A stretch of 64,000 nucleotides of DNA from Nitrospirota bacterium (lineage in GTDB: Bacteria > Nitrospirota > UBA9217). The translations under genes were made by a program, and so were the position numbers. Below the pieces are notes generated by a model that worked only from the letters and a program-made list of their open reading frames with translations, ran no database searches and had not been told where the DNA came from. Position 1 is the first letter of the stretch. Each line of letters begins with the position of its first letter. This document shows positions 21,051 through 64,000 of the stretch, piece by piece. The stretch is taken from the NCBI GenBank assembly GCA_963818475.1, contig CAWFSF010000006.1:2048001-2112000 (forward strand). Reading direction: 5' to 3'.

Positions 21051-21524
21051 GTTCACTCCTCGCCATCGCAATGATATCATCCACCATCTTCGGCGTAAGC
21101 TCGCCGTAGAGGTCCTGGTCATTCACCGTGGCTACCGGTGCCAAGGCGCAGCAGCCCACGCAGCCCACGGTCTCAAGCGTGACCGAACGGTCAGCCGTGG
21201 TCTCGCCTTGCTTGATGCCCAGCTTGGCTTCCATCTCGGTCAGCACGTCCTTGGCGCCCCGCACATGGCACGCCGTACCCATGCAGACCTTGACGATGTT
21301 CTTGCCCCGCGGTTTGAAATGGAAGTGTTTGTAGAACGAAGCCACGCCATACACGTTGTTAATCGAAAGAGACATGCGGTCCGCAGATCATCGTCATCGC
21401 ATCCTCGGGCAGATAGCCCACCTTCTCCTGCACCCGCTGCAGCACAGCAATGAGCATGCCTCGCTGGCCTTGTGCATCGTCGAGGACAGTATTAACCTTC
21501 TTTCAGATCTTCTTGCTCGAGCAC
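21034..21524 (-). CDS. HydC/NuoE-like [2Fe-2S] subunit (frameshifted)
   Basis: LIAVLQRVQEKVGYLPE, VYGVASFY, VCMGTACHV, GCVGCCALAP; GTG start after RBS GGGAGG. Confidence 0.9.
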
Positions 21525-38655: not shown

Positions 38656-41600
38656 CTAATTTATCAACTCCAACAGGTACCACTTCCTCTCCCAGACCTT
38701 GAGCAGTTCATCGAGCCCGGTGCGTAGAGCGGGTGCATCAATCGATAGCATTCGCACCTCCTCGATTGCCTGGAGGATGAGCTTGATGTTATCTTCAGCA
38801 ACCCTCCTGGTTCCGGCATTCGTATCCACGAGCATCAGAAGGTCGATGGCTTTCGCGACCCGATCAGCATCGGAAACCGTTTTGACGGCCAAGGCACGCA
38901 AGTCAGCGAGGACCATCCCGAGCTGTTCGCCGGAGCTGTTCTGCACGGTGAGCATAAGCTCATACTGGCCGTACGTCCTGAAGAACCCGTTATTGTTGTA
39001 GGCCAATTCGGTTTTCGTCAGGTAGCTGCCGGCCGCATCCGGAAGGTTGAGATAGTACCCGAATCCGGCCCTTTCGTTCGCCGTCATGGATTTCTGCCAT
39101 GTTAATGTGTCATCCACAGGCGTTACCCGAGGAACGACGGTGTCAACGGTCGCACCGTAAGGGAGGCTTTCGATCATCTTCATTTCCACAGGTTCGGTTG
39201 AATTCGTGACGGTTATCCTGATGGGCGCGCTCCCCAGGGCACTCGACGTTTGCGCCGCAGGCCGTACGAAGTTGAGGCTTTCGATGAGCAGTGCGGAAGC
39301 AAGCGACTGATCGTCCGCGTTCAGAAGATCGAAGGTGTAGAGAAGAACCTTGCCTCGTTCATACTGGTTGAAAACGACGGCAGGATAGACATCCTTCTTA
39401 TCGAGAACCGAGCCAAACATCTGAGCTGTCGTGGAGGTGATCGCCGATACGATGCTCTTTCCGGTTGCCCGGAGAGATCCCTCGATGCTGACAGGACTCT
39501 CTTGCAACGTTATCGTCAGGTTATCGCTGGTCGTCTTGCCAGAGAATTTCAGGCCGAAGGCGTCGTCCAGGAATGGATCTGCATTCGGTTTTGTCTTGAT
39601 GAAGATAAGCCCGTCACCGGAGAACACCGATTCCCGGATTTCCCCGCCGATGAGCGGGTCCTTGACATCGATCAGGATGTAGGTGTTGTATCTTCCTGAT
39701 CGAAGCGCTATCGTAAAGTCGTCCACTGTTTCAGTGACAGTATAGGTCAGATTGAGTGACGTCAGGAGTCTGTTCAACATCTGCAAATCTGCCTGCTTCT
39801 GAGCAAGGTCCGAATTGTCGCTCTCAACGCCGACAAGGATGATCGAGTCGGCTGCTGTCTTCTTCTCCATCTCCATGATGATCAGCCGCACGGTGATCGA
39901 TGTTTCAGCCTCTTCGTTCAGGACGTTGTCCGTCGCCCTATAAGCTAGAGTATATTGCCCTGCCTTCATCCCGGCAAGGCTGAAGCTTCCCGAATACACC
40001 TGCCATGCGCCATTATTGATGCGGTACGCGGCTGTTCTTACGCCGGATAAGGCATCAGCCGGCATCAAGCTGAAAGATGTCGAAGGAGACACCGTATTGA
40101 TTACACCCTCAATCAACGGGTCTGACGCCGAAATCGAGGTCTGCGGCGCTGTTTTGTCAAGGATGACGGCGAGTTCTTCTATGTCCCCGCGATTATCCAG
40201 GTTATCGACGGACCGATATCTGATTGTGCGGGTTCCCTCATTATAGGAAGACAGCGTGAACATGGTCGTATAAGCGCTCCACGGTCCTCCATCGATACTG
40301 TATTCGACTTTACTTACTCCGCTTACCGCGTCCACGGCAGTAATGGTTACTCCGGTGCTGCTGCTCACATACAGTTTTCCCTCAGACGGGTATTGAGGAA
40401 CTCCAACCGTTACCGTTGATACCGGCGCGGCATTGTCCACGATCACGGCAAGCGTCTTAAAGGTCTCCGTATTCAATACATTGTCCCTGCTATAGTAGTC
40501 GATCGAATGCATACCTTCAGAGGCAATCGTGAACGGCGCATATGTCGTCCATTCTCCGCCGTCTATCCGGTACTCGGTCAGAGCAGCGCCGGAGATATTG
40601 TCCGTCGCGGAAAGGATGAACGTCGTGGAACCCGTTACATAGAGCTTCCCGTCAGCCGCGGTATACTTCGGCTCGCCGGTCATAATGGTCGTCACCGGCG
40701 GGGTTTTGTCTGCAAGCACGGCAAGCGTCTTGAAGGTCTCAGCGTTGGATACGTTGTCCTTGCTGTAATAGTCGATCGTGTGCGTGCCTTCCGTTAAAAT
40801 TGCAAAAGGCGAATAGGTCGTCCATGCTCCACCGTCGATCCGGTACTCGGTGGCCGCAATACCGGAGAGATTATCAGCTGCGGCAAGCGTAACGGTTGTG
40901 CCGTCCGTGATGTACAGTTTCCCGTCAGCGGCAGTGAACTGCTGTCCGTTTGTTGTGATCGTTGTCAGCGGCGGCGTGTTGTCCACAATTGCTGCAAAGG
41001 TCTTATCCGGCTCGGAATTGGCAACATTGTCCCTGCTGTGATAAAGGATCGTATGGCTGCCTTCTGCCGGGATCCAAAAGGGAGCAGCCGTGATCCACGG
41101 CCCGGCATCCAGCTTGAATTCGGCCATGGCCACGCCGCTCAGGGCATCCACGGTTGAAAGCGTGAAGGACGTGTTTTGCGTGACATAAACGGAGCCGTCC
41201 GGTCCGATATACCTGGGCTCGCTCGAAGCGAGCGTCGTCACGGGGACTGTTGTGTCCAGTGTTACGGCAAGAGTATGATACTCTTCGGTGTTGGTTGCCC
41301 GGTCGACGGCCCGATAGTCCAGAGTGAGCGGTCCATCACTCATTCCTGCAAGTGCTGCCGGCGTCTGGTACACGTTCCACGCCGCCTCATTCGTCCGATA
41401 CTCGAGTTTGTCCACGCCGGACATGATCGTGCCCGGATCGGACCCAGCCAGGGTCAACGGAGTCGCGCCGGCAACGTAAAGCAGTCCGTTGCTCTCGAAC
41501 GTCGGCGATCCTATGGTCATCGTACTGGTGGGCCTGGTCTTGTCTATGAAGAACGCATAGACTTCGCTCAAGCTGTTTCCCGCCTTGTCCCGGGCTTGTA

Positions 41601-43116
41601 TCCGCAGCTCATAGTTGTTCTCCGCGGTAATCAGCGTCCCGCTCGTGTAGGCGTCCCCGTTCAGGGAGGTCTCCACCATTTCCAGATCGGCATCCGTCAC
41701 CGAGATGATCGGGCTGAGGTCCGTATTATAGTAGATGCCTTTTGCAATGCCGGCCACGGAGATCGCAGGCGGGGTCTTGTCAACGGTAAATGCAATTTCT
41801 TTCACGCTGCTGTTTCCGGCGGTGTCGGTCGCGGTGACCTTCAGAAGGTAATTCCCTTCCACGCTTATCGGAAGTTGAGCATAGGATATGCCGTTCAGCG
41901 TAATCTCGTTGAATGCAAGATTTTCATCCTGAACGGTAATGACCGGCTGGACGTCGGAAGGATAGTACACATTGTTCGATATGCCGCTGACCGTGATTCT
42001 CGGGGCAACGTCGTCCACTGCCGCGGCGTAAACGATAACGCCGGAGCTCTCGTTTCCATGGGCGTCGTAAGCGGTTATCCTGACCGGTGATGCCTGGCCC
42101 AGAGCGAGCCCGGACATTTCAACGCCGGTTGAGGCGGCATTCACAATGTCGCTTACCCGGACGCCGGAGGCGTTATAAACGCGGTATCCTGCGGTATCCG
42201 AAGACGGCGAAGGAAGCCAGGACAGTACTGCCGTGCCGCTCTCGTCCCCGGCTTTGTCAACAGCGTGAACATTGGTAACCTCGGATGGCGCAGTATTGAT
42301 GGCAAGATCAACGGCTGTTTCGCAGAGAAGCGTGGTCCCCGCATTTACCGACTGAACCAATACCGCATTGAGCGCATGTGTTCCCGTCGAATTGTCCAAT
42401 TCATACGCAGTTCCGAGAGAAAGTTTTGCCGTGGTCAATGCAGCCGTTGCGTCCTCGCCCGACAGTCCGATCAGGTTCGGCGCTTGCGTATAGCACTTCA
42501 AATCCACGGTGGCCCCCGTATTATTCTCGACGGGATAAACAGTGCTCCCCTCAAGCAAGGCGACATCGACAAGAGATATAACGATCTTCTCGGCTGCCGC
42601 CTGGCTGCCGGCGTTGATCTGAAAACGGGCGACGGTACCGCTGCCTGATGGCAGTGCGGCTCCGTTGGTCTGGCCCAGCGTGTATAACGCGGAACCATTC
42701 TGAAGTATTTCATTGTCCATCACGAGGATCCCGTGGGATCCTTTCGAATTCCAGAAGAAGTCACCGACTCCTGAGCGGCTGGTTGTGGCCGGACCGACGA
42801 TGAGCGGCGAGGAAACCGAAATGTCCCCCGGCTGGCCTTGGGCAGTATCCGAAACCGGCGCTACCGTGGATCCGGGCGCGCTTACGTTCAGCCGGAACTG
42901 GATGGCGCCCAGGCCTTCGGCAGGGATGCCCTCGACCACAACATCGGCGTAAAAGCTCTCTCCGGGCGTTACCTTGGAAGCGGACGGAACGACCTTGATA
43001 CCGGCTGCCGACGCTGTTCCCGCCATACAGCACAGCGCGAACGCAGCCAGGCAGGACGTCAGCAGGAGAGTTCCCGCTGTTCCGGACAATCGTGCGATCG
43101 GTGATTTACTGAACAT
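38656..43116 (-). CDS. Secreted scaffold-like protein: cohesin + PASTA + FN3 + tandem Ig-like repeats (1486 aa)
   Basis: Signal peptide MFSKSPIARL...TASA. Cohesin-like VTPGESFYADVVV...GLGAIQFRLN...SGSGTVARFQI. PASTA-like APNLIGLSGEDATAALTTAKL...VLVQS. Repeated D.TPP.TT...DNLSG...TEYRIDGG.W...EG.H.I.YYS.DNV.N units. Confidence 0.8.
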   Translation of the reverse strand: MFSKSPIARLSGTAGTLLLTSCLAAFALCCMAGTASAAGIKVVPSASKVTPGESFYADVVVEGIPAEGLGAIQFRLNVSAPGSTVAPVSDTAQGQPGDISVSSPLIVGPATTSRSGVGDFFWNSKGSHGILVMDNEILQNGSALYTLGQTNGAALPSGSGTVARFQINAGSQAAAEKIVISLVDVALLEGSTVYPVENNTGATVDLKCYTQAPNLIGLSGEDATAALTTAKLSLGTAYELDNSTGTHALNAVLVQSVNAGTTLLCETAVDLAINTAPSEVTNVHAVDKAGDESGTAVLSWLPSPSSDTAGYRVYNASGVRVSDIVNAASTGVEMSGLALGQASPVRITAYDAHGNESSGVIVYAAAVDDVAPRITVSGISNNVYYPSDVQPVITVQDENLAFNEITLNGISYAQLPISVEGNYLLKVTATDTAGNSSVKEIAFTVDKTPPAISVAGIAKGIYYNTDLSPIISVTDADLEMVETSLNGDAYTSGTLITAENNYELRIQARDKAGNSLSEVYAFFIDKTRPTSTMTIGSPTFESNGLLYVAGATPLTLAGSDPGTIMSGVDKLEYRTNEAAWNVYQTPAALAGMSDGPLTLDYRAVDRATNTEEYHTLAVTLDTTVPVTTLASSEPRYIGPDGSVYVTQNTSFTLSTVDALSGVAMAEFKLDAGPWITAAPFWIPAEGSHTILYHSRDNVANSEPDKTFAAIVDNTPPLTTITTNGQQFTAADGKLYITDGTTVTLAAADNLSGIAATEYRIDGGAWTTYSPFAILTEGTHTIDYYSKDNVSNAETFKTLAVLADKTPPVTTIMTGEPKYTAADGKLYVTGSTTFILSATDNISGAALTEYRIDGGEWTTYAPFTIASEGMHSIDYYSRDNVLNTETFKTLAVIVDNAAPVSTVTVGVPQYPSEGKLYVSSSTGVTITAVDAVSGVSKVEYSIDGGPWSAYTTMFTLSSYNEGTRTIRYRSVDNLDNRGDIEELAVILDKTAPQTSISASDPLIEGVINTVSPSTSFSLMPADALSGVRTAAYRINNGAWQVYSGSFSLAGMKAGQYTLAYRATDNVLNEEAETSITVRLIIMEMEKKTAADSIILVGVESDNSDLAQKQADLQMLNRLLTSLNLTYTVTETVDDFTIALRSGRYNTYILIDVKDPLIGGEIRESVFSGDGLIFIKTKPNADPFLDDAFGLKFSGKTTSDNLTITLQESPVSIEGSLRATGKSIVSAITSTTAQMFGSVLDKKDVYPAVVFNQYERGKVLLYTFDLLNADDQSLASALLIESLNFVRPAAQTSSALGSAPIRITVTNSTEPVEMKMIESLPYGATVDTVVPRVTPVDDTLTWQKSMTANERAGFGYYLNLPDAAGSYLTKTELAYNNNGFFRTYGQYELMLTVQNSSGEQLGMVLADLRALAVKTVSDADRVAKAIDLLMLVDTNAGTRRVAEDNIKLILQAIEEVRMLSIDAPALRTGLDELLKVWERKWYLLELIN

Positions 43117-44101
43117 CGGTCCTCCCGTATTCCTTCGAGAATTTCGAAAAATCACGAACATCCACTTTGCCTCCCGTGTCAGCCACGAAATCATAATCCG
43201 GGTTGTAGATGCCGTCATCGCGCGTGGTCCTGTATTGGGCCTTGAATGCTGCAAAGTCCTGGTCGTCGACCTTCCCATCAAGGTTGCTATCGGCAAAGAA
43301 GCCCGGCACCGGACCGACAATCGAAACGAGCGAGCTGTTCTGCGGCGCTTTCCTGTAATGGACCAGGGTGGCAAGATTTCCTGCCCGATAGATGCGCAGC
43401 GTGATCGTTTCATTACCCGCTACAATACTATTCGAGCCGTCGTCACCGAAGAGATTGTTCAGGTCCAGCATGCCTTCCGGAGAGACCGCTCCGTCACCGA
43501 CAAATGCGCTGATCGGATACAGGGAAGCCTCCTCTTCAAGGACGACCAGATCGCCTAAACCGGGCTCGGCTGCCGTGTCTGAGGGCCGGATATATACGGG
43601 AAAAGTCACGAGATCATTTGCAAGTGCCTGAACCATGCCGTTCACGGGACGATACAGTACAATGTTCGAGGCGGTGGTTACCTGCTGGAGCGCCGAGTAG
43701 CTGACGCTGCCGGGATTCAGCGAATCTCTCGTAACGGTCCTGACAGAATAGGTTGTCGCAGGCAGAACGCCCGACACGCGAACCTTGACGATCCCCTTTT
43801 CCCGTGCTGCCTGCGCAGCCTTGCTGATCGCCGCCGGCATCGGCGTAATGAGTATTCCTTCGGTCAACCGCTGCTGCAGAGAATTATCCGCATACACCTC
43901 TACCGACGGATCGGCAACGACATCGGTCATCCAGATTACGGAAAAAGAGGAAGGTGTGACATCGCTGACACGGACAGCGCTGGTTTCAGGAACAGCGTAA
44001 ACCGGCGATGCACACATACAAAATGCCAGATAAAGAATGAGGCTTGCGAAATGAAAATTGAAGGACTCCCCTATTCTCTGCTTGCATGTCAATCTTTTCA
44101 C
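43106..44101 (-). CDS. Secreted FN3 protein with C-terminal dockerin-like domain
   Basis: GTG start coupled to the upstream stop; signal peptide ...PVYA; FN3 VRVSDVTPSSFSVIW; two Ca-loop repeats ADSNLDGKVDDQDFAAFKAQY and DFVADTGGKVDVRDFSKFSKEYG. Confidence 0.8.
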   Translation of the reverse strand: MKRLTCKQRIGESFNFHFASLILYLAFCMCASPVYAVPETSAVRVSDVTPSSFSVIWMTDVVADPSVEVYADNSLQQRLTEGILITPMPAAISKAAQAAREKGIVKVRVSGVLPATTYSVRTVTRDSLNPGSVSYSALQQVTTASNIVLYRPVNGMVQALANDLVTFPVYIRPSDTAAEPGLGDLVVLEEEASLYPISAFVGDGAVSPEGMLDLNNLFGDDGSNSIVAGNETITLRIYRAGNLATLVHYRKAPQNSSLVSIVGPVPGFFADSNLDGKVDDQDFAAFKAQYRTTRDDGIYNPDYDFVADTGGKVDVRDFSKFSKEYGRTDVQ

Positions 44102-50207: not shown

Positions 50208-51086
50208 CTATTTCTTCTTTCTTAGTTCCGTTTCGATAATTGTCTCAAAACCATGCAAACTGCGGTCCTTCAGCTGCTTACCGTTTACAAAAATGGTAGG
50301 TGTGCCGTGCACGCCTGCTTGATTGCCCTCGGCAAGATCCCGGCTGATCAGTCCCTGAACCGCCGGGCCGTTCATGTCTTTACCGAACTTATCAAGATCA
50401 AGGCTCAGTTCCTTGGCGATATCCATAAATTTTGTTTCGCTCAGGCCTGACAAATTTTCAAATATCTTATGATGGTACTCCCAGAACCTTCCCTGTTTAT
50501 GAGCCGCAAGAGCTGCGGTTGCAGCCGTACGCGAAAGCTTGTGCATCGGAAGCGGAAAATTCTTTTCGACCAGTTTGACCTCTTTGGGATATTTCTCCAG
50601 CACCTGCTGGAGTAGCGGATCGAGCCGCGCGCAGAATGGTCATTGGTAATCGCTGAAGATCGCTATGGTCACCGGCGCGCTCTCAGGCCCTTTAAAAGCC
50701 AGTCCGCTCAAGTCGAATTTCTGCAGTACTTCCACACTTATGAGTCTGATCGTTTTTGTGGTACTGCTTGAAAGCATAAGAGTGTTTGCATTCGCCTGGG
50801 AGGAGTTAGAAATCCGATCGAACGATTTATCCACCGGGATTTTGCTCAGCACTTTGTCCTCGGCAATGGAATAGACCGTTATTTCTCCGGGTGTGAGAAT
50901 ATATGCCGTCTGCCCGTCTGTCGATAACGCCGTATCAAGCGGCGCGGCTTCTACGGTGAGCTGCTTTTTGAGCGTCCATTCCACTTCTGCAAAAACAAAC
51001 TGCGGCAGGATTAAAAGCACAATAACGGCAACTAAGAGTATGTTCAGGCTATTCATTCTATTTTTTAATGATCCTGTAGACTGCAC
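50208..51086 (-). CDS. DsbA/thioredoxin-family selenoprotein (in-frame UGA = Sec in UPFC)
   Basis: ORFs 50640-51086 and 50208-50603 are in the same frame, separated only by TGA at 50640-50642: APVTIAIFSDYQ-U-PFCARLDPLLQQVLEKYPKEVKLVEKNFPL...GVHGTPTIFVNG. Signal peptide present. Confidence 0.88.
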
Positions 51087-51175
51087 AACAACTCCTCCGA
51101 ATGTTTATTAAGTTCAAACAACACCACACGGCATACAATAATATCCTTAACATCCCTAGTCACTTGAAACGAAAT

Positions 51176-51889
51176 TCACTTCTTGACGCCCTTAATTTTG
51201 GATTGATTCAATATGTGATATATTTTTTCTCGGTTTTTTTCCTCGATTACTTCAGCCCGTAAACAAACATGTTCAAAAACAGAACGCCCTGCTTCGTCCT
51301 TTATCTCGACTGAAGCGCCGCTGTCTATTAACAATTTGACAATTTTATAATTGCACATCGCGGTAGCATGCATTAGTGGCGTCCATCCGTATGAACCTTG
51401 CAAGTTGACATTATGACCATTAGAAATAAGACTCTGAATCAGGTTGATGTCTCGGCCGTAAACAGCTTTTATCAGCTCTGGTTCTTTAGCAGGATCGAAT
51501 GATGCAGGTAAAGTCTCTAGCAACCGTGCCTTATCCAGCAATTTTACTATTGCCTGCTTTACGTCTGGGCTAGCAGTTTTCGGGTTAACGCATATATAGT
51601 TATATACGGTGAATCCTTTATTATCTATAACATTTACTTTTCCGCCATTGTTCAACAGAATCCTAGTTATTTCCAGATCACACTTAGCTGAGGCATGCAT
51701 AAGCGGAGTCGACCCATATTTATCTTTTAAATTTACATTCACACCCATTTCTAGTGCTTTTTCAACGTATTTGACATTACCTTTATCTATTGCTTCAAAC
51801 AATTCGGCGTCTTTACCTGCCCAACTCATGTTAGAGCTCCCTAGGCACATTATTATTAGCACCTGATATAATATTTTCTTCAAATACAT
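51176..51889 (-). CDS. Secreted ankyrin-repeat protein, candidate immunity protein
   Basis: Signal peptide ...SNMSWA; two duplicated ankyrin blocks (GSTPLMHA, GWTPLMHA), each with a Cys pair; AT-rich; directly downstream of the toxin-like C-terminus. Confidence 0.85.
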   Translation of the reverse strand: MYLKKILYQVLIIMCLGSSNMSWAGKDAELFEAIDKGNVKYVEKALEMGVNVNLKDKYGSTPLMHASAKCDLEITRILLNNGGKVNVIDNKGFTVYNYICVNPKTASPDVKQAIVKLLDKARLLETLPASFDPAKEPELIKAVYGRDINLIQSLISNGHNVNLQGSYGWTPLMHATAMCNYKIVKLLIDSGASVEIKDEAGRSVFEHVCLRAEVIEEKNREKIYHILNQSKIKGVKK

Positions 51890-51941
51890 TTATTAATCTC
51901 CTCGTTTATCATCTTTAGATTGTTTATATCTTTAATTAAAT

Positions 51942-54900
51942 TTAAAAACTGCTCAAACCGTCTTGTCCGGTTGATGGACTGGATCTACTGGTCGGATCAG
52001 AAGCCTCCAATGCGTCTATGCTCGCGGCTAATTCTCGAGGCGTTTCAAAACCGTACATGTCATCGGCATCGACATCTTCTCCGACAACAGTCATAATACA
52101 ATCTGATGCCCATGCAGCACAGGTATTGGTGATAGTCCAGTAACTTGGTGTATTGATATAACTAATCAAAGCCTGCTTTTCATCAGCAAACAGCATGTAG
52201 TATCTATTGTGATTGCCCGAGGATGACTCATAATTAACCCTGACATCGCTTCCGTCATTATTATCCCCTCTTTGGATGACAAGCCAGTGATCGTCAGGCC
52301 GACAGCCCATAGGTTGTTACAAGACCGGACGTAACGTCTGTCACTGTAATCCACGCATGACCATCAGTATAAGACGGATCTATTTCATTTTGTAATGATG
52401 AGTGAACACCTAGAACAGTGTCATAAACGAGAACGTTTAGTTTGACTCTATTGCCACATTCAGCCTCAATTGTCTTATAATCTGTTTTACTTGATGAGAC
52501 CGTATCGAAGGTCACAGTTATTGTTTCTCCTGACCCAGACGCGCCCGAACTTCCGCTCCAACTAGGTTTCCCATCTGGCCATGGAGCACTGGAAGGTGTT
52601 TTTGCAGCAGTGAAAGTAACTATTGATCCTTTCATTATAAAAATAGTTTTAGTAGTATCCGGACTATCAGTATCCGATGTTTTTCCACGACCACTAATAG
52701 AATCTATCTTTACAACATACGTTTGAAGCATATACATCGGCTGGTCGTTAAAGCAATTGCAGTTGGCATATACAGAGACATCGTAAACGCCTGGCGATGA
52801 ATATGAATGATTTATAGTCGTGCTTGTCGTTGAATCTCCTGATCCGTCTCCAAAGTCCCAGAAATAAGTAATATCACAGTTCCCAGTAGCAGTTACAGAA
52901 TAATTGACCGTTTGGTCTATTGGTACGACATCCGTCTCCTTTCCATCTGCATAAGCTGATGTAATTGTTAAACTTATCGTTTCGCACGTTTTATTCCCGA
53001 AAAGGTCCGCCTTACAAACGCCTGGATTTGGCGTATTCTGATTGCAGCATTCGCCTTCCGCCTTGAGATTACACTCGCTGCACTGCTGCGGATTGAGATC
53101 GAGTAAGCTGTTTGCGGACAGTGATAACGATCCCGCCTTTAAACTGCTAGTCTGAGTAGTCTGAGCGTCCGCACACGCAACGACTTCGACGGTATCCGAA
53201 GGCTGCGCATCGGTGCAATCGCAGTTCACGTAGACTGTGGCATTGTAGATGCGCGCCGATGGCAGTATAGGTATGCGATATGGACGAGGTTGTCGACATA
53301 TCACCCGATCCGTCGCCGAAATCCCAGAAGTACGTGAAGTTGCAATTTCCATCCGGAATTGCCGTGAAGCTCACCGGCTGATTGGTATACACGACCGCCG
53401 ATTTATTAAGATTAACGAGAAGACTGACGCTCGTTAAAACGACCGGCTCGCACGTTCCCGCTTTACAGATTCCATCAATATTGCAGCATGTCGCAGGATC
53501 ATCCGGCACAGGCACTTTAACCCCATCCTGGCACTGATTACACATGTCATCCGGGATGGGCCCTGTGATCGGCGTGTTCTCGCACCCATTCGCTCCGCAT
53601 GAATCCTCGGTGCACGGGTCACCGTCGTCGCAATCGAGCGGATAGGACTGGCAATCACCGTTTTCGCACCAGTTCACGGTGCACGGGTCGTTGTCTTCAC
53701 AATCTTTGGGCGTATTGACGCACCCGTTAGGTCCGCAAGAATCATCCGTGCACGGATCGCCGTCGTCGCAATCCAACGGGTAGGACTGGCAACCTCCGTT
53801 TTCGCACCAGTTCACGGTGCATGGGTCATTGTCTTCACAATCTTTGGGAGCGTTGACGCACCCATTGGGTCCGCAAGAATCATCCGTGCATGGATCGCCA
53901 TCGTCGCAATCCAGCGGATATGACTCGCAGCCGTTCGCGCCGCACCAATCTACCGTGCAGGGATCGCCGTCTTCGCAGTCCAGAGGATAAGACTGACAGC
54001 CTTCCCCCTCGCACCAATTGACCGTGCACGGGTCACCGTCTTCACAGTCGCTGGGCGTGTTGACACAGCTTCCCGATTGGCAGGAATCTGTCGTGCACGC
54101 GTTGCCATCATCGCAATCTTTTGGTGTGCTGATGCAGCCGCCGGACCCGCAGGAATCATCGGTGCACGGATTGCCGTCGTCGCAGTCAAGAGGATAAGAC
54201 TGGCATCCGCCGTTTTCGCACCAGTCAACCGTGCACGGATCGCCGTCTTCGCAGTCCAGAGGATAGGACTGACAACCGCCGTTTTCGCACCAGTTAACCG
54301 TACACCCGTCTCCATCATCGCAGTCAATGGATGTGTTGATACAGCTTCCCGACTGACAAGAATCGTCTGTGCACGCGTTGCCGTCATCGCAATCTTTGGG
54401 TGTGTTGATGCAGCCGCCGGACCCGCAGGAATCATCGGTGCATGGATTGCCGTCGTCGCAATCCAACGGATAAGACTGGCATCCGCCGTTTTCGCACCAG
54501 TCGACCGAGCACGGATCGCCGTCTTCGCAGTCGAGGGGATAGGACTGGCAACCCCCATTTTCACACCAGTTCACCGTGCATCCGTCTCCGTCTTCACAAT
54601 CGATGGACGTGTTGATACAGAGGCCGTCCTCGCAGGAATCATTGGTGCAGGAATTGCCGTCGTCGCAATCCCTGGGAGTGTTGATGCAGCCTCCGGACCC
54701 ACAGGAATCATCGGTGCACGGATTGCCGTCGTCGCAATCCAACGGATAAGACTGGCATCCGCCGTTTTCGCACCAGTTGACCGAGCAGGGATCTCCGTCT
54801 TCGCAGTCAAGGGGATAGGACTGGCAACCGCCGTTTTCGCACCAGTTAACTGTGCACCCGTCTCCGTCATCGCAGTCAAGGGATGTATTGATACAGCTTC

Positions 54901-57900
54901 CCGAGACGCATGAATCAGTCGTGCACGCATTGCCGTCATCGCAATCTCTGGGTGTATTGATGCAGCCGCCAGCCCCGCAGGAATCATCGGTGCACGGATT
55001 GCCGTCGTCGCAATCCAGAGGATACGACTGGCAGCCGTCTTCGCACCAGTTCACTGTGCACGGGTCGCCGCCGTCGCAATCTATGGGAGTATTGACACAC
55101 CCTCCGGAACCGCACGAATCGTCCGTGCACCCGTTGCCGTCGTCGCAATCCAGAGGATAGGATTGGCAGCCGTCTTCGCACCAGTTCACTGTGCACGGGT
55201 CGCCGCCGTCGCACACTACAGGCTCGTGGGTACATGCACCGTTTGAACAGGAGTCATCCGTACATGAGTTATTGTCATCGCAGTTCATGCAGCCGCAGTC
55301 ACCTGTCGGCAGAGGACCGGGCTGTCCAGGAGCACCCCCGCCGCTTCCGCCTGAACTACCGCCACCGCCACCGTACCACCCGCCGCCGCTGCCGCCACCG
55401 CTACCACCGTGCCGCCACCGCTTGTCGGACAGGTCGTTGGTACGCCGACATTCCCGCTGGTGCTCGCGGTTGCTGTCGCTCCTGACACAGGACATGTTTC
55501 CGCCGTACCGGATGCCGTTATGGGGAATGAGGAAACACATCCTGCTCCGTATCCGCGTACTTCTTCAAAAAGCGAGGACAAAGCTGAAGCAGCGAACAAT
55601 TGAAGTGAAGAATCGGGGTTACATGCGTCATTTCCTGCATCACGGAGGTTTAAGTTCGCGGCCACTGTTTGCCGTTTAGTGACCCTGAAGGGCATCGTTA
55701 TCTTCTGTTGCGCCCCAATTCTGGTCGGTATCGACGAAGTGAAGACTTCTACGTCGTAGTCCAAGAAGCTGGTCGGGAAAGTTATTTTAACGTCAACTAC
55801 AGCTATCAGCCCGTAGTTGGTGATGGTAAATTCGCCGTTAAAGACCTGCCCAGGCAGCATTTCGGGAAGATTAATGACTGGAGGCTCAGTGACGAGCACG
55901 GGTAACGGTACATTGGTAGCAAATGTCTGAGTGATTACGATCTCGTATTTGTCCTGTATTGTCGTCGGCACCACACTCCAGGTGACGTCGACAAGCTTTA
56001 CTTCCAAAATTATGGAGGCAGTGGTTGTTATTCCCGGACTTACGACAAATGTCCCGGAATAAGGCAAATGTCCCGGCGGAGGCGTCACATTAAAGGAATA
56101 TCTTCCCTCGGGTATGTCATTCTTCATGACGGTGCCGTCTGTACCGCTCTTTACGGTATAGATAAGATCCGTGAGCAGTTGATTCTGGAATGTGATCGTG
56201 GCATCGGGCATTTTTTCCGCCAGCATATTCTGCACGGTAAAATATACGCTGCCGACCGCGTTGCTCGATACGGTCACCTGGATGTGATACGTATAGGGTA
56301 TATGATTATCGGAGTAAATAACGATTTGATCGTCATAAACTCCTTGCGCAAGGGTGCTGGACGGCACTGAACATGAAGCTGACCGACTTGGAAGAACCCG
56401 GCAGAATATCGCCGATGGTTTTGTCCTGTGTAAGACTCATCCATGATGTGGACGGACCTTCGATCCGCGCATTTTTGAGGGTGTCCTCTCCCGTATTCGA
56501 GATCGTGAAGGTGGCAATCTTCTGGTCTCCCCGCACCATACCGGTATCGATATAGGACGGACTCGTGCTGATGATCGGGCTGAGGCTGACCATGATGATC
56601 GAAGCATTGAGCGTGACGGAGAGTCCTTCAGCGGTCGTTGCCTTCATTGTCGCCCAACCGGTATCAGGCGCGGACGTATCCGCCGTGAGACGAAGCGTGA
56701 TCGACTGCTTTTCCCCTGCGGTAAGCGTTGTGTCGCCGTTGTTGATAACTCCCGCGACGATGCCGCTGCTCGATGTGGTTTCAAACGCCAGACCGGTGAG
56801 AGCGCCGCCGCCGAAGTTGCTGATCGTGACCGGGATGTCGAGACTGCGGTTTCTCGCCAGTCTGACAGTCGCCGAGGTCGGATTGATCGGAGATTCCGGC
56901 TATGGAGAACGTGGCCTGGACGGTCCTGTCCTTGACATCGGGGTGCACCGCCCAGAGGCTGTAGGTGCCTGCCTCATTGCTTCCCGGCGTAAAGGTGTAG
57001 CTGAAATTGCCGGAGGCATCGGTCGTGACGGTGTAGAACCGGTCGAAGCCGTTCACGGAAATGCCGAGCTTCACCGGAACGTTCGGAACAAGCGCCCCCT
57101 CACCCCCGCCCTCTCCCGCGAGGGTAGAGGGAGTGTTAGAGATAGCCGAGCCGTTGATGATAACCGGCTGGGCCATGGCATAGAAGGTTTTATCAGGCGC
57201 TGCCACGGCGCGATAAGCAGTCTCCTGGATATAGGACTCCACTGAGCCTTTCATACCCGGCGCCGTGACCTGGTCGGACTTCGAATAATGATAATAGGTG
57301 TTCTCGATCACTGCCTCGATGATCACCTTATAAGGGGCGGAAACAGGCACGGGCAGCAGGATCGGATCGGTCATGAAGCTTTCGTTCGGGTTGATCCGCG
57401 CAACCGCGTATCCCGCACCGTTCACGATAGCAGCGCCTACGCGCTGGTCCAGGTAACCGGTGGACAGGAGGTTTCCATCCTGGTCCTTGAGATTGATCCT
57501 GACCTTTGTCGTCTTCGTATTGTTTTCGCTCGTGACGAGCTCCATCTGGCTCGTGCCGATGTTGTTCACCTTGAGCCGCACCTTCGCGTCCGTGTTCCGA
57601 ACAAGCGGATCATTGAAGATCTCCATGCTCGAACTCGATCCCTGGACCTCTGCCGACGTGGTCCTGGAGAGCTTAATGGCAACGCCGGGCGACGGCGACC
57701 AATTTGCCTGGATGAATACGGACACCGGAGAAAGAGCGTCCGCTGTCGTGGCCGCAACCTTTTCCAGCTGAAGCGTGGTGTTGGCGGCGAGGCTGAACGG
57801 TCCCAGGATCGTGCTTGCAGGAGCAGTACCCACCTTGACGTCGATTGAATCAATGCTCAGGCCAAAGCCAGAAGCTAATGATATGATGATGGGCACGGTT

Positions 57901-60900
57901 TCGAGCACACCCCTCCTGAGGGTAGTCCCCTCTTTCAGGCCGAGCGTTAGATCGGGTAGTGCTACCTCTTTGACCGGGCTTTCATTCTCCAGATTGTCCA
58001 CTGCGGAGACGCCGTAGGTCGTGTTCGACGCACCATAGCCATCGGTATAGGAGAGATCCAATACCGGGTACGGCGTAACGCGGCTTCCGTTCCGGTAGAT
58101 ATGATAGCCTGCAATAGTGCCGTCCTGCGGCGACTGCCAGGTGATCGTGGGAGCAGCATCATCGATACGCTGGAGCACCAGATTTCTTACCGGAGACACC
58201 GGGAAATCGATCTCCTTGATCTCAGACAGCAGGCCTTCATTCCCGAGGCTGTCCACGGCGGCAACTGCATAGAAGCGATAGGTTTTCGAAGGCGAAGCGT
58301 CCACTGCCGTCGAGATCGGGACCTTTGCCACGGGCGTGAGACCGGTTGATGAGGTAAACGCGGCGTTCGACCGGTACAGATGATAGCCCTTGAGAGGCAG
58401 TACGGATTGAGAATCGACCACTGCGTCCCAAGTCGCGGAGACGCCGCCGCTTCCGAGAGAAAGCGATAAATTCTGAGGAGCAGGAGGTCCTGTCCTGTCG
58501 GAGACTGCCTGCACTTCGGCAGAGAGCGGGCTCTCGCTTCCCATAAGGCCCACGGATGTTATTGCATAGTAGTAAGTGCCGTCATCCGGCGGCGTGTCCT
58601 GGGCCGGCGATCCTGCACTTCCGGTTATAACCTTTGTCGGGGACGATTCATTCTCCGCTCTGCGGTAGACGTTGTAGGTAATGGCAGAGCCGCCTATGTT
58701 GTTCAGCTGTTCGTACATGACCGGGTACCAGGTAAGCGTGACTGCGCCTGCCTTTTCCGATTTCGCTGCAAGGCCGTCCGGTATTCCGGGGGACGGCACC
58801 TGATCGCGGTACAGCAGGATATACCGGCCTGTAGAGACGATAGTGCCCACATTTCCGAGTGTATCTTGTGCTGAGTTCATGATGAACTCGGCCTTGCCCT
58901 CGGGCATGCTGGAGACATTGAGGGATCCCGCCCAATGAATGCCATTGTCCGTCGACGTCATGCCGCTTACGAGCGAGGTCGTTCCATCCGACCCCTTGAG
59001 GGTAATTTCAGGTGTCACGACTGAAGCTTCATTCAGGATGACGGCAACGGCAGCAGGATCGGACTTGATCTGCAAGGTCGCCGCTGGAGATTGGACTGCG
59101 GCTTCCGGTCCTTTGACGTCGATGGTGATGCCTGCCCCCTGCCCGTTCCCGCGATTTCCGACCATGTCCTTGCCCGAGAATTTGTACGTTGTCGCTCCCT
59201 GAGGGCTTTGTGCGGTGATCGTGAAGGCGCCGTCGTAGTGCGTGTCGTCCACCTTGTTCATCGTGACCACGATGGGAGAGCCTTCCTGCGGCTCGAGGCT
59301 GAAGAACGGCAGCTCCTTGAGCTTCTCGCTCACCGTGACCGCAACTTCCACGCTGCCCGGACCGACAGCCGAGTTCGGAGTTATGAGTTGTGAGTTCTGT
59401 TTGTATTGGATAGTTGCGACGGACGGCGCAGTCCCGTCCGTAGACAGTGCTGCAACATTCGATATCCCGCTCTCGTTGCCTGCGCTGTCCAAAGCCGTTA
59501 CGGCATAGTACCTGAAGCCGTCGTCTCCAGGGTTGTATTCCTTGTACTGGTACGTTATCGGAGAAGTGTTCGTCGCCGTCACCCCTGCGTCCGTCTTTGA
59601 ACTGAAGGAGGACGGACTCATATACAGGTTGTAACCTGAAGGCATCTCACCCGTCGGGCTCGTCCAGGTAAAGCGCAAAAGCCCTCCTGTCAGGACCTGT
59701 GCAGCAAGATTCTGAGGAGCGGGAGGTGCGCCGGTGTCGACCAGGATCTTGTAATCCGGCGCATAGGCGCTCTCGCCTCCGCGATGGCTCGCCTTGACTG
59801 CAAGGACATTGTCTCCTTCAACAAGTGCTATGGACGGGAAGGTGAATGTTCCCGTTCCTGTCGTACCTGCGGTCTGGGCCGTGTTGACAACGACACCGTT
59901 CACTTTAAGCGTGACGGTCGTGAAGAGCGGGGCCGTGCCCGTTGCGGTCACTATATAGCTGGGTGTCGTCTGTGTCTCGCTATGGCCCGTGATCTTCGGG
60001 GAAGCGGGCTGTGCAAGACTCACGATGACCTGTCGCGGGTCTTCGGTTGCGTTCCCTTTGCTGTCCGTTGCCCTGAGCTTGATCGTATGATTGCCGTCGG
60101 TCGCAGCAACCACATTCCAGAAGTAAGAAAGGCTGCCACCGTTCTGGGTCGCAACAACGGTGCCATCGATGGAAAGCTCCATCGAGCCCATCGTGCTTTC
60201 AACATCATACGCTGTTGCGGTGATCGTGATCGGCCCGGTGACCACCTGGCCGGTGATGATCGAGAAGGTATCGATGGCCGGTCCTGTTGAGTCGGCCAGG
60301 GGTGTCACGCTTATGCTCTGGACATCGGACCGCTCGGCGCCTGATGTGTTCAGTACCGTGACCGCGTATTGATAAGTGGTGTCGTTTGTGAGGCCCGTGG
60401 CGTTGTAGGTCGTTGCAGTCTTGGCAACATTACCGACCAGGGTCATCGTGCCGATGCTGGTCAGTTGCGCTGTCGAAGGTTTGCTGTAAATATTGTATTG
60501 CTTCACGTACGGCGAACTTACCGCGCTCCAGGAGAGTGCAGCCTTGCCGCTGCTTGTTGCGGCGGTGAGATTCGTGGGGTTCGCGAGCCGCGTTACCGCT
60601 TCGACCACAGCGCCACGGCTCTCATGACCGAGCGTGTCTTTGACCGTTATTTTGAACTTGTACTTCGTTGCGTCGGAGAGCCCCGTTTTCGTATAGGTCG
60701 CTGCCGTCTTTCCGAGCGGCGTTCCGGTGTCGTACCCTGTCCCGCCGTCCACGTACACGATATGGTCCGCGAGATCATTGGTGGAGTTAAGGCTGGCATT
60801 CCAGGTGATGGCAATGAAGTTTCCTTGCGTGTCTGCGTAATCGGCTGCCGCAGCAAGATTCGTGACATCTTCGGGAGCCTTTGTATCGGTCGGCACTGCC

Positions 60901-63900
60901 GATGCGATATTCACGGTATCGATCTGGTTCCCTGCCTGATCCACTGGCACGACTGCGAAATAGTAGGTGGTTCCCTGAGTAAGCGCCGTTGCGGTGTAGG
61001 TCCTGGTGCCGTTGTTCACCGTGCCGATGGGTATCATGCCGGCGACATCGCCAAAGACCGAGAGAGATTGGTAGACGACGTAGTAGCCGACGTCGGGCGT
61101 CTCGGGATAGGCCGTCCACGACAAGGTTGCCTCAGTGCCGTTGCCGCTGCCGTCCGCAATGAGCACACCGGGGCCGAGCGGCGCGGGAGGAGCGGTATCG
61201 TACAGAATATCGACCGTCCTGGTCGTGGTGTTTCCGAGCGCGTCGGCCGCGGTGAAGACATAGCGATTCGTAATACTCGATATCAGGTTTGCGTCATAGG
61301 ACCAGGTGTCGCTGATATCGGCCGGGCCGTAAAGCTGCGTGTCGCCGAGCTTCACGATACAGCCCGGCTCCTTCGTTCCGGTCAGGGTCTGCGTTGCCAC
61401 CGACGACGGGTTCTGATAGGTGTTCACGGTGAACGTCGGCGGAGTAGTGTCGAGCACGATGGCCGCGGTCGTGGGAACCGAATTGTTCCCTGCCGCGTCG
61501 CGGGCCGTGATGGAGAGTGCATTCGTGCCCTCGGAGAGGGGGTAGCTGTAGCTCCATGGTTCACCCGTTGTCGGGTTCGGATCTGCAGCAACCCGCTGAG
61601 TCCCATTGATGTAGATGGCTGAGCCGAGTTCTCTGGCGCCTTTCAGGATCTGGTTCCGGTTGTTGGTGGGCGTTGTGACGTTATCCAGGCCTGGTGATGC
61701 AGGCGGTGTTGTGTCGAGGACAAAGGTGCCGGTCGCGGCACTGGTCATCACGTTCCCGGCTATGTCTTGGGCTCCCGATACATTTACGGTATAGGTGCCG
61801 TCGCCAGTCCCGCTGCTGAACGTATGACTGCCGTTCCAAGTCTTGTTGTAGTTGCTCCAGCTTTTGCCAGTCCAAACTGGCGTTATGGTACAGAAGATGA
61901 GACAAGAAGACTTCACAAATGAAACCGACGGGTCGATGGTTGTGGACATCGGCTCATTGAATGTGATACTGAACTGCACGCTCTCGGTCTTGTGCGGGCT
62001 TGTGGGGCTCATGGTGAGAGACTGGACCGTGGGCAGTCCTGTATCCAGGGTGAAGCTGAAGGTAAGCGTTATCGTAGTTTCGAGCTGGTCAACGGGTTTT
62101 ATCTTGACCGTGTACACTCCGTCTCCCAAAACAGTACCTGGATCAGGCGTGAACACAATATGGCCGCCGGCTTGCGTGGTCCATGAACCGCTGATGACCG
62201 TGTTGTTCGAATACGTGACCTCATTGTTTTGGATCGACGCCTGAAGATCGACGCCTGAATTATCGTCAACCAAGACGATGTCGATTGATGCGAGCTGGTT
62301 CGTGAATCCGTTGATAGAAGGCGTTGTGGACGATATCCTCGGAGCAGTGGTGTCCCTGACAACATTCACGGTTACCGACTGACTCGGGTTGCCGGCCTCG
62401 TCCTGCGCAAAGACGACGAAAGCGTTATTCCCTTCGCTCGTGAGGTTAACGGGATAACTCCATGCACTATCACCATATGCCGCGCCGGTCTTGACATTGT
62501 TGACGAACAGGTATGAACCCGCTTCCTTCGTTCCGGCTAAGGTAATCGAACTCAGCTTCGTCGGCGTTGACTGAGGAGTGACGATTGGTGCAGCCGGAGG
62601 AAGCGTGTCCACGGTGAAGGTCATTTGCGCTGAAGGGCTCGGGTTCGCTGCCTGATCAACGGCATATGCAGTAACAGTGTTGCTTCCTTCGTCCAGTCCG
62701 GATACCGTGACGCTCCAGGTGAGGGCTGTAGGATAGGATACGGCGCCGACTGTCGCGCCTGCGCATGCGGCTATGATCTTTATTGAATCCAGGCTCTTCG
62801 TGCCGTTAATCGTCTTTGTGGTCGTGCGGCTCGGAACGAGTATGGGATCGATCGTCGGAGGCGGAGGCGGCGTGGCGTCAACCGTGAAGGTCATACTATA
62901 AGATGAACGGTTGCCCAGCAGGTCGGTCGGGTGTATCGTGGCCGTATAGGTTCCTTCGGTCATGGTATCGTCCGGTGTGAACGTTACTGCTGCAGTTGAA
63001 CCTCCGCCGGACGTGGCCCAGGTGCCCGAGGGATCGGCGCCGGATGTTTTTGTTACAGAAGCACCGGTCAGAGTTGCGTCCAGGTCGATGGTGGAGAACG
63101 GCTCACTGAGGTTGAATTTGATCGATCCGACCGATGTATTGAACAATCCATTGTTGACCGGGTCAGTGCTTAAAACATCCGGCGAACTCAGGTCGAGGGC
63201 AACGGGAACGAGGACAGCCTGACTATGGAACCCATCGGCATCCATTGCCGTGAAGCTCAGGTTGTTCATGCCAGGCTGCAGGGTATAACTCGCCTGCCAG
63301 GTAGTTTGACTGTCGAGCGGAACTATCGTTGTTCCATTCACGACGATGGCTGTTTCGGCAGGTTTGGAGCCGCTAAGCGTGATGGTCGAAGAAGTAGTCG
63401 GAGTCTGCACCGGTTCAACCGTCGGCGGCTGGATGCTGTAGGAGCGGTAGTTTTCCTGGATCTCCGTGTCCGAAAGCGCGCGGTTGTAAATGGCTACATC
63501 GTCGATTGAACCCTTATACGGCCCGTAGGTGGCAACATTGCCAAATGTTGTAGAAGCATAGACATTCTCCCGCAGGCTTAACAGTCCGGTTTTAACAAAT
63601 TGTCCGTTCAAATACAATCTAGGTTGCTTATTTTCGTACACCACCGCAATGTGATTCCAAGCGGCTAGCGATACGTTGTGGACAAGCAGAGACGGCAGAT
63701 AGCTGCTCCCATGTTCAAATACACTGATCCCGTTGGTTCCCACCGATATTCCCACTCCTGCATCGTTATTACCACCATGTGCAGGGCCAACAGCATATCG
63801 TTGAGCACTCGTGCCTGAAATACCCGAGTTGCTTTCGGAAGTAACATTGCGGGTGGCGGTAGGATATGCCCATAGCATGACAGTAAAAGTATTTGCTGCT

Positions 63901-63998
63901 CCGGCATAAGAACCGGCACCTGCCATTGCATAATCATCAACACCATCAAAACTTCCGGCATAGGTCCCGATCTTGGCGCTTGAGGTGAACGTAGCGCC
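51942..63998 (-). CDS. Giant secreted multidomain protein, over 4000 codons, 5' end outside window: LamG - Ig/FN3 array - Gly linker - 25 Cys-rich repeats - 2 PKD - C-terminal toxin-like domain
   Basis: ORFs 56781-63926, 56333-56647, 55285-56367, 53147-55540, 52294-53352 and 51942-52310 join through single-base shifts near 56890, 56370, 55420, 53255 and 52305. The frame is open to the window edge (GSFDGVDDY, WNHIAVVY, GSIDDVAIYNRALS = LamG). Confidence 0.8.
53564..55282 (-). repeat. 25 tandem coding repeats of 66-69 bp (CDDGNPCTDDSC-type; Dictyostelium CTDC / myxobacterial Cys-rich-like)
   Basis: Counted 25 units with 4 Cys each, of two subtypes (CT.DSC..GC.NTP.D and CTVNWCENGGCQSYPLD). Confidence 0.9.
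57095..57132. repeat. REP-like palindrome embedded in frame in the giant gene
   Basis: CCCCCTCACCCCCGCCCTCTCCCGCGAGGGTAGAGGGA, same family as 45023-45072; encodes PSTLAGEGGGEG. Confidence 0.7.
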
Positions 63999-64000
63999 GC

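Follow-up and report, generated by a model that had tools for sequence, protein, structure and literature searches.

On the minus strand of a 64,000-nucleotide (nt) stretch of a Nitrospirota bacterium genome (GTDB lineage Bacteria; Nitrospirota; UBA9217; GenBank assembly GCA_963818475.1, contig CAWFSF010000006.1, forward-strand positions 2,048,001 to 2,112,000), hereafter called the window and numbered from its first letter, a giant gene ends in a putative toxin domain and is followed by a small gene for an exported ankyrin-repeat protein. The whole toxin region, the ankyrin gene and the giant gene share this strand. The C-terminal toxin domain (~150–157 amino acids (aa), VLGVHSS...DGLSSF; 51945..52416, minus; stop codon at 51942–51944) has an invariant His (GHAW) ahead of an invariant Cys (NTCAAW). 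Its stop codon is separated by a 52-nt spacer (51890..51941, minus), in which a GAGGAG ribosome-binding motif lies 9 nt before the ATG, from a candidate immunity gene of 237 codons (51176..51889, minus). The product of this gene begins with MYLKKILYQVLIIMCLGSSNMSWA, by eye a typical signal peptide, and continues with two ankyrin-repeat blocks (Pfam Ank_2, E 6.9e-29). An earlier note on this DNA had placed a signal-peptide ankyrin gene 52 nt after the toxin, with which open reading frame (ORF), spacer and Ank_2 match agree, and had read the pair as an exchangeable envelope-targeting toxin with periplasmic immunity. Here, we describe the toxin domain, its relatives, carriers and partner genes, and weigh that reading.

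The toxin domain is split between two frames. The upstream frame (52294–53370, minus) terminates in ...DGHAWITVTDVTSGLVTTYGLSA at a stop, and the downstream frame (51942–52316, minus) carries on with ...PDDHWLVIQRGDNNDGSDVRVNYESSSGNHNRYYMLFADEKQALISYINTPSYWTITNTCAAWASDCIMTVVGEDVDADDMYGFETPRELAAS...SSF and a stop, its last piece being ...PDDHWLVIQRGDNNDGSDVRVNYESSSGNHNRYYMLFADEKQALISYINTPSYWTITNTCAAWASDCIMTVVGEDVDADDMYGFETPRELAASIDALEASDPTSRSSPSTGQDGLSSF. The break consists of one extra base at 52303..52307 (minus), where TGTCGGCC is present and an intact sibling implies TGTGGCC. When one base is skipped there (read as X), a single open reading of 188 residues results. It holds every string that the earlier note had quoted, with His before Cys in the last ~160 aa as that note had described. 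The sibling, P0002, is a 1,340-aa protein from a metagenome assembly, retrieved in a word-indexed search for longer proteins and 98% identical over the query region. It runs uninterrupted through the break position (...TTYGLWPDDHWLVIQ...) and contains exactly the ‘TTYGLWPDDH’ that had been obtained by dropping one base near 52305. A tblastn search with P0002 locates the break between 52303 and 52307, at both of which a high-scoring segment pair ends.

The remainder of the giant gene is repeat-rich. Its 5′ two-thirds (56781..64000, minus; in a stop-to-stop listing, the frame enters the window at 63998) are uninterrupted and encode LamG, Big_13, Big_6, Big_7 and fn3 domains; its 3′ third (52294..56899, minus) lies in broken frames and encodes an immunoglobulin (Ig)-like region, ~20 Cys-rich Dicty_CTDC repeats and two PKD domains, as assigned with Pfam. 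Past 56781 the reading continues in five further frame pieces (56333–56899, 55285–56436, 53147–55564, 52294–53370 and 51942–52316). The gene extends beyond the end of the window to a start ~1.86 kb further on, where the protein opens with a Sec-type signal peptide, MTESQRTLMKFRALLNILISYVLLFPAGVTNVGA... (MKFRALLNILISYVLLFPAGVTNVGA...), and a read-through of the frame gives ~4,640 codons. In full, the Pfam content comprises two Laminin_G_3 domains, Ig folds of the Big_13, Big_6, Big_7 and Glucodextran_B types, fn3, a HYDIN/VesB-like Ig domain, Dicty_CTDC in 20 stretches (E 8e-101) and two PKD domains. Neither a two-partner secretion (TPS) domain of the type V secretion system (T5SS), nor PAAR, LXG or a type I secretion system (T1SS) signal was detected on the giant protein with Pfam.

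In an alignment of 18 family members (A1), H20 (GHAW), C99 (TCA), D116 (in DVDADD) and T125-P126-R127 (ETPRE) are invariant in all 18; H20 and C99, spaced by 79 residues, are also invariant in 25 sequences of the Xanthomonadales-type type IV secretion system (T4SS) effector (X-Tfe) kind. The AlphaFold2 model computed on A1 has a predicted local distance difference test score (pLDDT) of 88 and a predicted template modelling score (pTM) of 0.85. According to DSSP, C99 opens the helix 99–111 and H20 lies just before the strand 21–26, with local pLDDT of at least 90. The modelled arrangement is papain-like, with the predicted His-bearing sheet ahead of the Cys helix in sequence. Candidates for the third catalytic polar residue, which would orient the His, are D57 (nearly invariant) and D116 (invariant).

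An exhaustive structural search of 48,161 PDB chains with VIA-align ranked TseH first (6v98; Z 8.7, 126 aligned residues, root-mean-square deviation 4.0, 10% identity in the structural alignment), followed by YiiX (2if6; Z 8.2), a Bacillus cereus cysteine peptidase (3kw0; Z 6.3), MARTX RID (5xn7; Z 6.0), Aichivirus 2A (7zv6; Z 5.7), DeSI-1 (2wp7; Z 5.3), CLN5 (6r99; Z 4.5) and PLAAT4 (7zot; Z 4.0). Unrelated folds start at Z 3.3, and MepS is matched at Z 2.7. We take all eight top chains to be His-before-Cys, circularly permuted papain or NlpC/P60-type enzymes. The accessible part of one report contributes to that assignment (PMC12994826). Aichivirus 2A, TseH and YiiX were also the top rows of a Foldseek search against the PDB, all weak (E 0.04–1.3), with no match at E≤1e-3; protein language-model look-alikes carry IcsB_M, TseH and Lnb_N and serve as leads only. 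Because the uniform top of the structural list, the conserved His and Cys and their placement in the secondary structure agree, a permuted NlpC/P60-type papain fold is a well-supported prediction for the toxin domain. The earlier note had proposed such a fold, and TseH, its example, is the best match to the model.

Relatives of the domain are numerous. A profile search of 1.84 billion representative sequences returned 700 clusters at E≤1e-3, of which 377 reach ≤1e-10 and 143 reach ≤1e-30. In the 150 best clusters, the position of the domain is mostly C-terminal, in host proteins of 125 to 4,161 residues. P0004 and P0005 are RHS proteins, and in P0004 the domain begins immediately after ...NDPVNLTDPTGL (DPTGL), the canonical end of the RHS shell. 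In a second architecture, the domain stands at the N-terminus and is followed by ~130 residues, which match XVIPCD at E≤1e-3 in 11 of 25 representatives of this type picked from the list. XVIPCD is the secretion signal of bacteria-killing Xanthomonadales-type T4SS effectors. In a gammaproteobacterial metagenome-assembled genome (L003), a stand-alone copy lies between genes that, named by eye, are tssE-like and tssF-like, that is, within a type VI secretion system (T6SS) cluster. The same domain is thus found on different delivery or stalk types: RHS, SpvB with FG-GAP and RHS (P0100), Calx-beta with PA14 and LamG (P0143), the Dicty/PKD giant (the window and P0002), XVIPCD proteins and the stand-alone T6SS-linked form. 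The earlier note had suggested looking for it on RHS, T6SS and T4SS effectors, and it occurs in all three contexts. Since it is interchangeable on RHS proteins, X-T4SS effectors and T6SS-linked proteins, we regard the domain, from these sequence comparisons, as a polymorphic interbacterial toxin warhead. A tblastn search against plasmids gave no match.

Several observations on individual members may be added. In L003, an ORF that by eye looks like a phage-type lysozyme precedes a small one with a signal peptide, which by eye resembles an immunity gene of the lysozyme-inhibitor type (L003:2257-3165); so named, the two would be a second effector–immunity pair in the T6SS cluster. In many members, a conserved DPT motif follows the catalytic domain and the protein closes with a short tail rich in Ser and Gly (ending in SSSF, SSSL or SSWxWP; A1 columns 201–239), which may be a processing or sorting signal. 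P0014, P0015, P0017, P0018 and P0019 look eukaryotic, with EGF domains, PT/PS repeats, Lys-rich tails and a shared ...FPTNFLSQCNYI end, and at locus L009 the toxin is followed by GT-microsatellite DNA with no immunity-like gene downstream; the domain may have passed by transfer to protists or other eukaryotes.

To survey partner genes, we used a degenerate DNA pattern for DVDADDxxGxETPRE, which found 34 metagenome loci; together with L003 and L005, 36 loci with a motif-bearing ORF were available, and a shorter pattern found at least three loci in genome contigs. The next same-strand gene was classed by eye from its N-terminal 60 residues, several loci being duplicates (nine toxins are identical to another). 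It belongs to one ~120-aa lipoprotein family (...CGG.MKQY...YYCPG) at 25 of the 36 loci, to a second lipoprotein family (...WWYAG...) at three, to signal-peptide ankyrins at five (L015, L027=L034 and L035=L036, three distinct sequences) and to another lipoprotein-like ORF at one (L025); the remaining two have none (a contig end and a eukaryote-like contig). Pfam finds ankyrin repeats in L015, L027 and L035, and nothing in the lipoproteins. An exported small partner ORF therefore starts between −11 and +159 nt from the toxin stop at 34 of the 36 loci. Because the partner carries an export signal at these loci, the toxin would seem to need neutralising in the periplasm and hence to act in the periplasm of its target. 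Export-signal partners of this kind match the description of periplasm-acting pairs of X-Tfe and X-Tfi, their immunity proteins, in the available portion of PMC6536674. Of the earlier proposal, the exchangeable nature of the toxin is in line with its recurrence on other carriers; envelope targeting is drawn only from the export signals of neighbouring genes.

Four lines of evidence bear on the ankyrin protein in particular. Firstly, the four exported ankyrins align over 209–244 residues, most of their length, with 29–32% identity, a shared two-block layout and hydrophobic N-termini, the window protein being 29–30% identical to the ankyrins next to related toxins; a search for ankyrin relatives found none closer than ~33% identity beyond the cluster of the window protein itself. 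Secondly, in a maximum-likelihood tree of 34 toxin domains (four short rows and nine duplicates were dropped and L004 was left out), a branch with 91/99 support separates the window toxin, together with all ankyrin-linked toxins, from all lipoprotein-linked toxins. Thirdly, a conserved pre-toxin segment (...WPDGKPSWSGSSGASGSGE...SKTDYKTIEAECGN...; 52417..52720, approximate, minus), compared by eye, also stands directly upstream of the toxin domain in P0007, P0008, P0009, P0012 and P0013, and its pattern, WP..KP.W.G..G..G.GE...SDTDYKT...CG, is by eye common to members on the window's side of the tree. Fourthly, complex prediction for the toxin and the mature ankyrin scored 0.45 (runs 0.48, 0.45 and 0.44) against 0.01 for the best control, a verdict of weak support. 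Of 80 solved complexes, 58 pass the mark, as do 2 of 110 mismatched pairs; at least 97% of contacts are common to the runs, and the partner has a pLDDT of at least 82. Taken together, the ankyrin alignment, the toxin tree, the pre-toxin segment and the complex prediction make it probable that the exported ankyrin is the cognate immunity protein. This part of the earlier note thus gains from the recurrence of an exported ankyrin downstream in five further loci, but the predicted binding, at 0.45, is weak.

Base composition delimits the same region. In 400-nt windows, the guanine–cytosine (GC) content is 0.345–0.458 across 51000–53199 and 0.53–0.63 in the gene body (53000–55599 and 56400–61999), in agreement with the earlier remark that the toxin and the ankyrin gene are more AT-rich than the gene body. 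The AT-rich block starts near 53100, ~700 nt upstream of the toxin domain, and spans the last PKD domain, the pre-toxin segment, the toxin and the ankyrin gene. Because the pre-toxin segment is conserved upstream of the toxin, and in agreement with the start of the GC drop, the sequences suggest a mobile unit of pre-toxin, toxin and ankyrin. The GC drop at ~53100 is consistent with a swapped cassette, and the AT-rich module was probably acquired horizontally. P0002, sought in 40 related genomes, matched in one, and there only partially, at the N-terminus.

Overall, we consider it likely that the gene encodes a Sec-exported giant tipped with a permuted NlpC/P60 toxin of an unnamed family, which would have a lipid target in the periplasm and an ankyrin antidote, and that the frame break is an assembly error. 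The proposed course of events is as follows. A repeat-rich giant with a signal peptide, LamG, many Ig-like and fn3 domains, ~20 Dicty-type Cys repeats and two PKD domains would be exported by Sec and would present the toxin at its tip. In the toxin, the catalytic His (GHAW) would precede the nucleophile Cys (TCAxWA), the latter at the N-terminus of a helix. Within the target cell's periplasm, the Cys would mediate cleavage of an acyl ester or amide bond in a membrane lipid, on the periplasmic side, as a phospholipase or acyltransferase. In the producer's periplasm, the exported ankyrin would bind and block the toxin. As regards entry, ‘T2SS/Sec-dependent’ polymorphic toxins (T2SS, type II secretion system) form, in the accessible text of Zhang et al. 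2012 (PMC3482391), a class of their own for which no entry route is defined.

A number of results weigh against this interpretation. On the side of the fold, a Z of ~8 is, by VIA-align's own warning, middling and can reflect a common arrangement. Neither Pfam nor NCBIfam gives a model at threshold for the read-through domain or the 18 members; below the Pfam threshold, DUF6950 appears in 5 of the 18 (best E 0.0032), DUF3750 in one (5e-4) and TseH in one (0.32). Moreover, the PDB returns of the sequence profile were all DARPin-like (E 0.017; E 3e-4 with a single sequence), which we rejected as motif resemblance rather than homology. On the side of immunity, an identity of 29–32% is near that of any two ankyrin proteins, the 91/99 branch lies below the tree tool's star threshold, and the complex score falls in the weak band, scores of ≤0.60 having come from 7 of 80 solved complexes and from both mismatched pairs that passed. 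On the side of delivery, we saw no genes dedicated to secretion or delivery within ~10 kb of the giant gene. Lastly, five breaks lie within 4.6 kb of the giant gene, after 9 kb of open frame, and of the three breaks resolved with P0002, two (GCGC at ~53250 and C at 52305) are not of the homopolymer type.

The stretch that was matched to DARPins, GEDVDADD..GFETPRELAASI, corresponds to residues 138–171 of P0001 and to ~52000–51900 (minus) of the window. Its GEDVDADD..G.ETPRELAA resembles the ankyrin consensus G.DVNA.D..G.TPLHLAA and is conserved in the lipoprotein-paired clades too.

The frame breaks give rise to the first alternative, namely that in this genome the giant gene has become a true pseudogene, its tip being no longer fused or expressed and the ankyrin possibly a functional orphan immunity gene. 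The indel near 52305 pointed out earlier is present, but it is not the sole break, the giant frame being interrupted five times between 56900 and 52300. Such clustering, next to 9 kb of open frame upstream and intact rpoB and rpoC genes on another contig, is what a decaying gene might show; moreover, the two upstream breaks are not pinned to a base, and the ankyrin ORF is intact with its own ribosome-binding site. P0002, compared with the window by tblastn, bridges the other three: at ~55408 a Gly-rich stretch has a G-run that lacks one base, at ~53250 there is a 4-nt GCGC insertion, and at ~52305 a single extra C. Across the broken stretches, the window differs from P0002 at 0 of 316 aa and 4 of 720 aa, so that the sibling is 99–100% identical at the amino-acid level and the ratio of indels to substitutions is far above that of natural decay. 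Conserved genes elsewhere in the assembly are split as well: a Fer4_11 domain between two overlapping frames and a NuoF-like gene (window 1580–2243 and 18878–21122), and, on the same contig, selB, which is cut into at least five frame pieces (G000:C6:1737669-1739560), with an EF-Tu-like N-terminus in a separate frame. Since the breaks come without substitutions and conserved genes are disrupted too, the pattern speaks for consensus indel errors in the assembly and not for gene decay. We therefore find a pseudogene rather unlikely and the 52305 break, from these comparisons, probably an assembly error. Indel errors are numerous in the assembly, on this contig at least, and should be borne in mind when ORF calls in the window are read.

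Retaining an intact giant with a toxin tip, the next question is its chemistry. Among the reactions open to the fold, a lipid-directed acyl-hydrolase or acyltransferase is, by analogy, the most likely, with a peptidoglycan amidase or endopeptidase second, because the characterised permuted NlpC/P60 toxins Tox-Act1 and TseH act on lipid. As set out in the accessible text of one report, Tox-Act1 is a permuted NlpC/P60 T6SS toxin of the periplasm that needs its His and Cys and cleaves acyl chains of phosphatidylethanolamine and phosphatidylglycerol, TseH has phospholipase activity in a liposome assay, and the permutation is argued by the authors to create a hydrophobic pocket suited to lipids (PMC12994826). 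That the same toxin–immunity pair instead contains a peptidoglycan amidase or endopeptidase would fit the cell-wall hydrolases for which NlpC/P60 is best known and the classical view of NlpC/P60 effectors. In addition, TseH, the best structural match, was first proposed as an endopeptidase (PMC12994826, in the part available), an exported immunity protein suits either substrate, and MepS is among the structural matches, but at Z 2.7 only. Every strong structural match, however, belongs to the permuted group, and its characterised members act on acyl-lipid or acyl-protein bonds, TseH as a phospholipase in one assay (PMC12994826, same part). We accordingly hold a peptidoglycan enzyme to be unlikely.

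That the domain is an anti-eukaryote effector, an acyltransferase or deacylase like MARTX RID, IcsB or PLAAT with the ankyrin as a co-secreted host-interaction factor, is very improbable: the structural matches include RID (Z 6.0), PLAAT4, CLN5 and DeSI-1, the language-model look-alikes include clusters with IcsB_M, several members look eukaryotic (EGF domain, PT repeats, GT-microsatellite flanks), and bacterial ankyrins are often host-directed (NCBIfam Legionella Ank models match far below cut-off), but the partner is a small lipoprotein or lipoprotein-like ORF at 29 of the 36 loci, a hallmark of periplasmic immunity, and the domain is carried with bacteria-killing X-T4SS signals and on RHS proteins.

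Going further than the lipid-directed toxin with its ankyrin antidote, one may tentatively join the parts into a single picture, which we think rather unlikely to hold as a whole. The toxins would form an undescribed, widespread family of periplasmic, lipid-directed Cys acyl-hydrolases or acyltransferases, with the invariant DVDADD..G.ETPRE block as a family-specific metal, membrane or substrate site. One subclade would be neutralised by a first class of periplasmic ankyrin immunity proteins. In the window, the toxin would be the tip of a Sec-exported fibre of ~4,600 residues that has no targeting domain of the T4SS, T5SS, T6SS or type VII secretion system (T7SS) type on the giant itself or within ~10 kb, so that giant surface fibres would carry out contact-dependent killing; and the family would have been transferred into eukaryotes.

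None of the neighbours of the giant gene is related to a secretion machine; they encode an SLT transglycosylase, PBP4, a rhodanese, a DsbA-like protein and another Ig-repeat protein. Surface-repeat proteins abound in the region: ~8 kb downstream, at 38656–43413 (minus), lies a second large one with Ig repeats (1,585 aa; Big_3_3, Big_13, Big_7 and PASTA), and an Ig-repeat protein of 496 aa is encoded just upstream of the giant gene (L044:5089-6576). Just downstream of the ankyrin gene, a DsbA-like thioredoxin-fold gene (50208–51104, minus) has an in-frame TGA (50640–50642) at the first Cys of its CxxC motif (...FSDYQ-TGA-PFC...). We considered this gene as a sixth frameshift and rejected it as such, since the stop is an in-frame TGA within the CxxC motif; judged by its reading, the product probably contains selenocysteine (UxxC). 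About 30 nt downstream of the TGA there is a 7-bp hairpin with an AGGU loop, whose fold energy is not significant (z −1.07). An AIRS gene resembling selD is located at L044:9119-9907, and the fragmented selB is on the same contig.

The attack of permuted NlpC/P60 toxins on membrane lipids is a recent finding, Tox-Act1 and TseH being the two studied so far, and the window family adds a third, sequence-distinct and apparently larger group (~700 representative clusters). Its sharing among RHS proteins, T4SS effectors, T6SS loci and giant Sec-exported proteins makes it a model for a warhead that moves between delivery machines, and its three kinds of candidate immunity protein (two lipoprotein families and exported ankyrins) offer a view of how unrelated scaffolds may neutralise one enzyme. 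For annotation, a putative function is gained for the tip of a giant ‘adhesin-like’ protein and for many hypothetical proteins.

Among known systems, the closest in structure is TseH, the T6SS effector VCA0285 of Vibrio cholerae (PDB 6v98; Pfam PF25218). The predicted core is the same permuted papain-like one with His before Cys, and both are interbacterial toxins, established or putative, with an adjacent immunity gene; a member of the window family, moreover, stands in a T6SS cluster (L003). The two differ in sequence: the Pfam TseH model appears in 1 of the 18 members at E 0.32 and in none at cut-off, 6v98 is absent from the profile-versus-PDB matches, and the invariant acidic DVDADD..G.ETPRE block is a feature of the window family. 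They differ also in setting, TseH being a small T6SS cargo protein and the window domain the tip of a Sec-exported giant. The TseH-class likeness put forward in the earlier note therefore holds for the fold, but not for membership of the TseH family by sequence (PF25218, E 0.32).

Tox-Act1 of the T6SS of Salmonella pathogenicity island 6 (SPI-6), an Rhs-type toxin, is likewise a permuted NlpC/P60 enzyme that acts in the periplasm and is linked to conflict systems (T5SS and T6SS), as far as the accessible text of PMC12994826 describes it; for mechanism it is the best precedent. Its catalytic residues are given there as H43 and C151, a spacing of 108 as opposed to 79 here, and DUF4105/Lnb, given there as its sister, is matched by no member of the window family among the 18 at E≤1; by this description the two are set apart, with a clade link being possible. 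YiiX/YaeF-like and LRAT/PLAAT enzymes (2if6, 3kw0 and 7zot; Z 8.2, 6.3 and 4.0) share the predicted fold and catalytic order, but are enzymes of housekeeping or lipid metabolism rather than toxin cassettes and have no sequence-level match to the window family.

In overall organization, the cassette resembles the Imm-ank polymorphic systems, which likewise have a C-terminal exchangeable toxin, a downstream immunity gene and ankyrin immunity (Zhang et al. 2012, PMC3482391, accessible text). In that text, Imm-ank is listed only with the Tox-AHH nuclease, whereas the window ankyrin has a signal peptide and is paired with a putative His-before-Cys hydrolase; the papain-like toxins listed there (Tox-PL1, PL-2, PL3, PLOTU, PLC39 and PLDMTX) all have Cys before His. 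Our literature search found no description of the toxin family, nor of a papain-fold toxin with an exported ankyrin as its immunity protein, which for a nameless family is weak evidence of absence. Set beside these systems, the family is a new, large and sequence-distinct one within a known toxin superfamily, with a new type of immunity and an unusual carrier.

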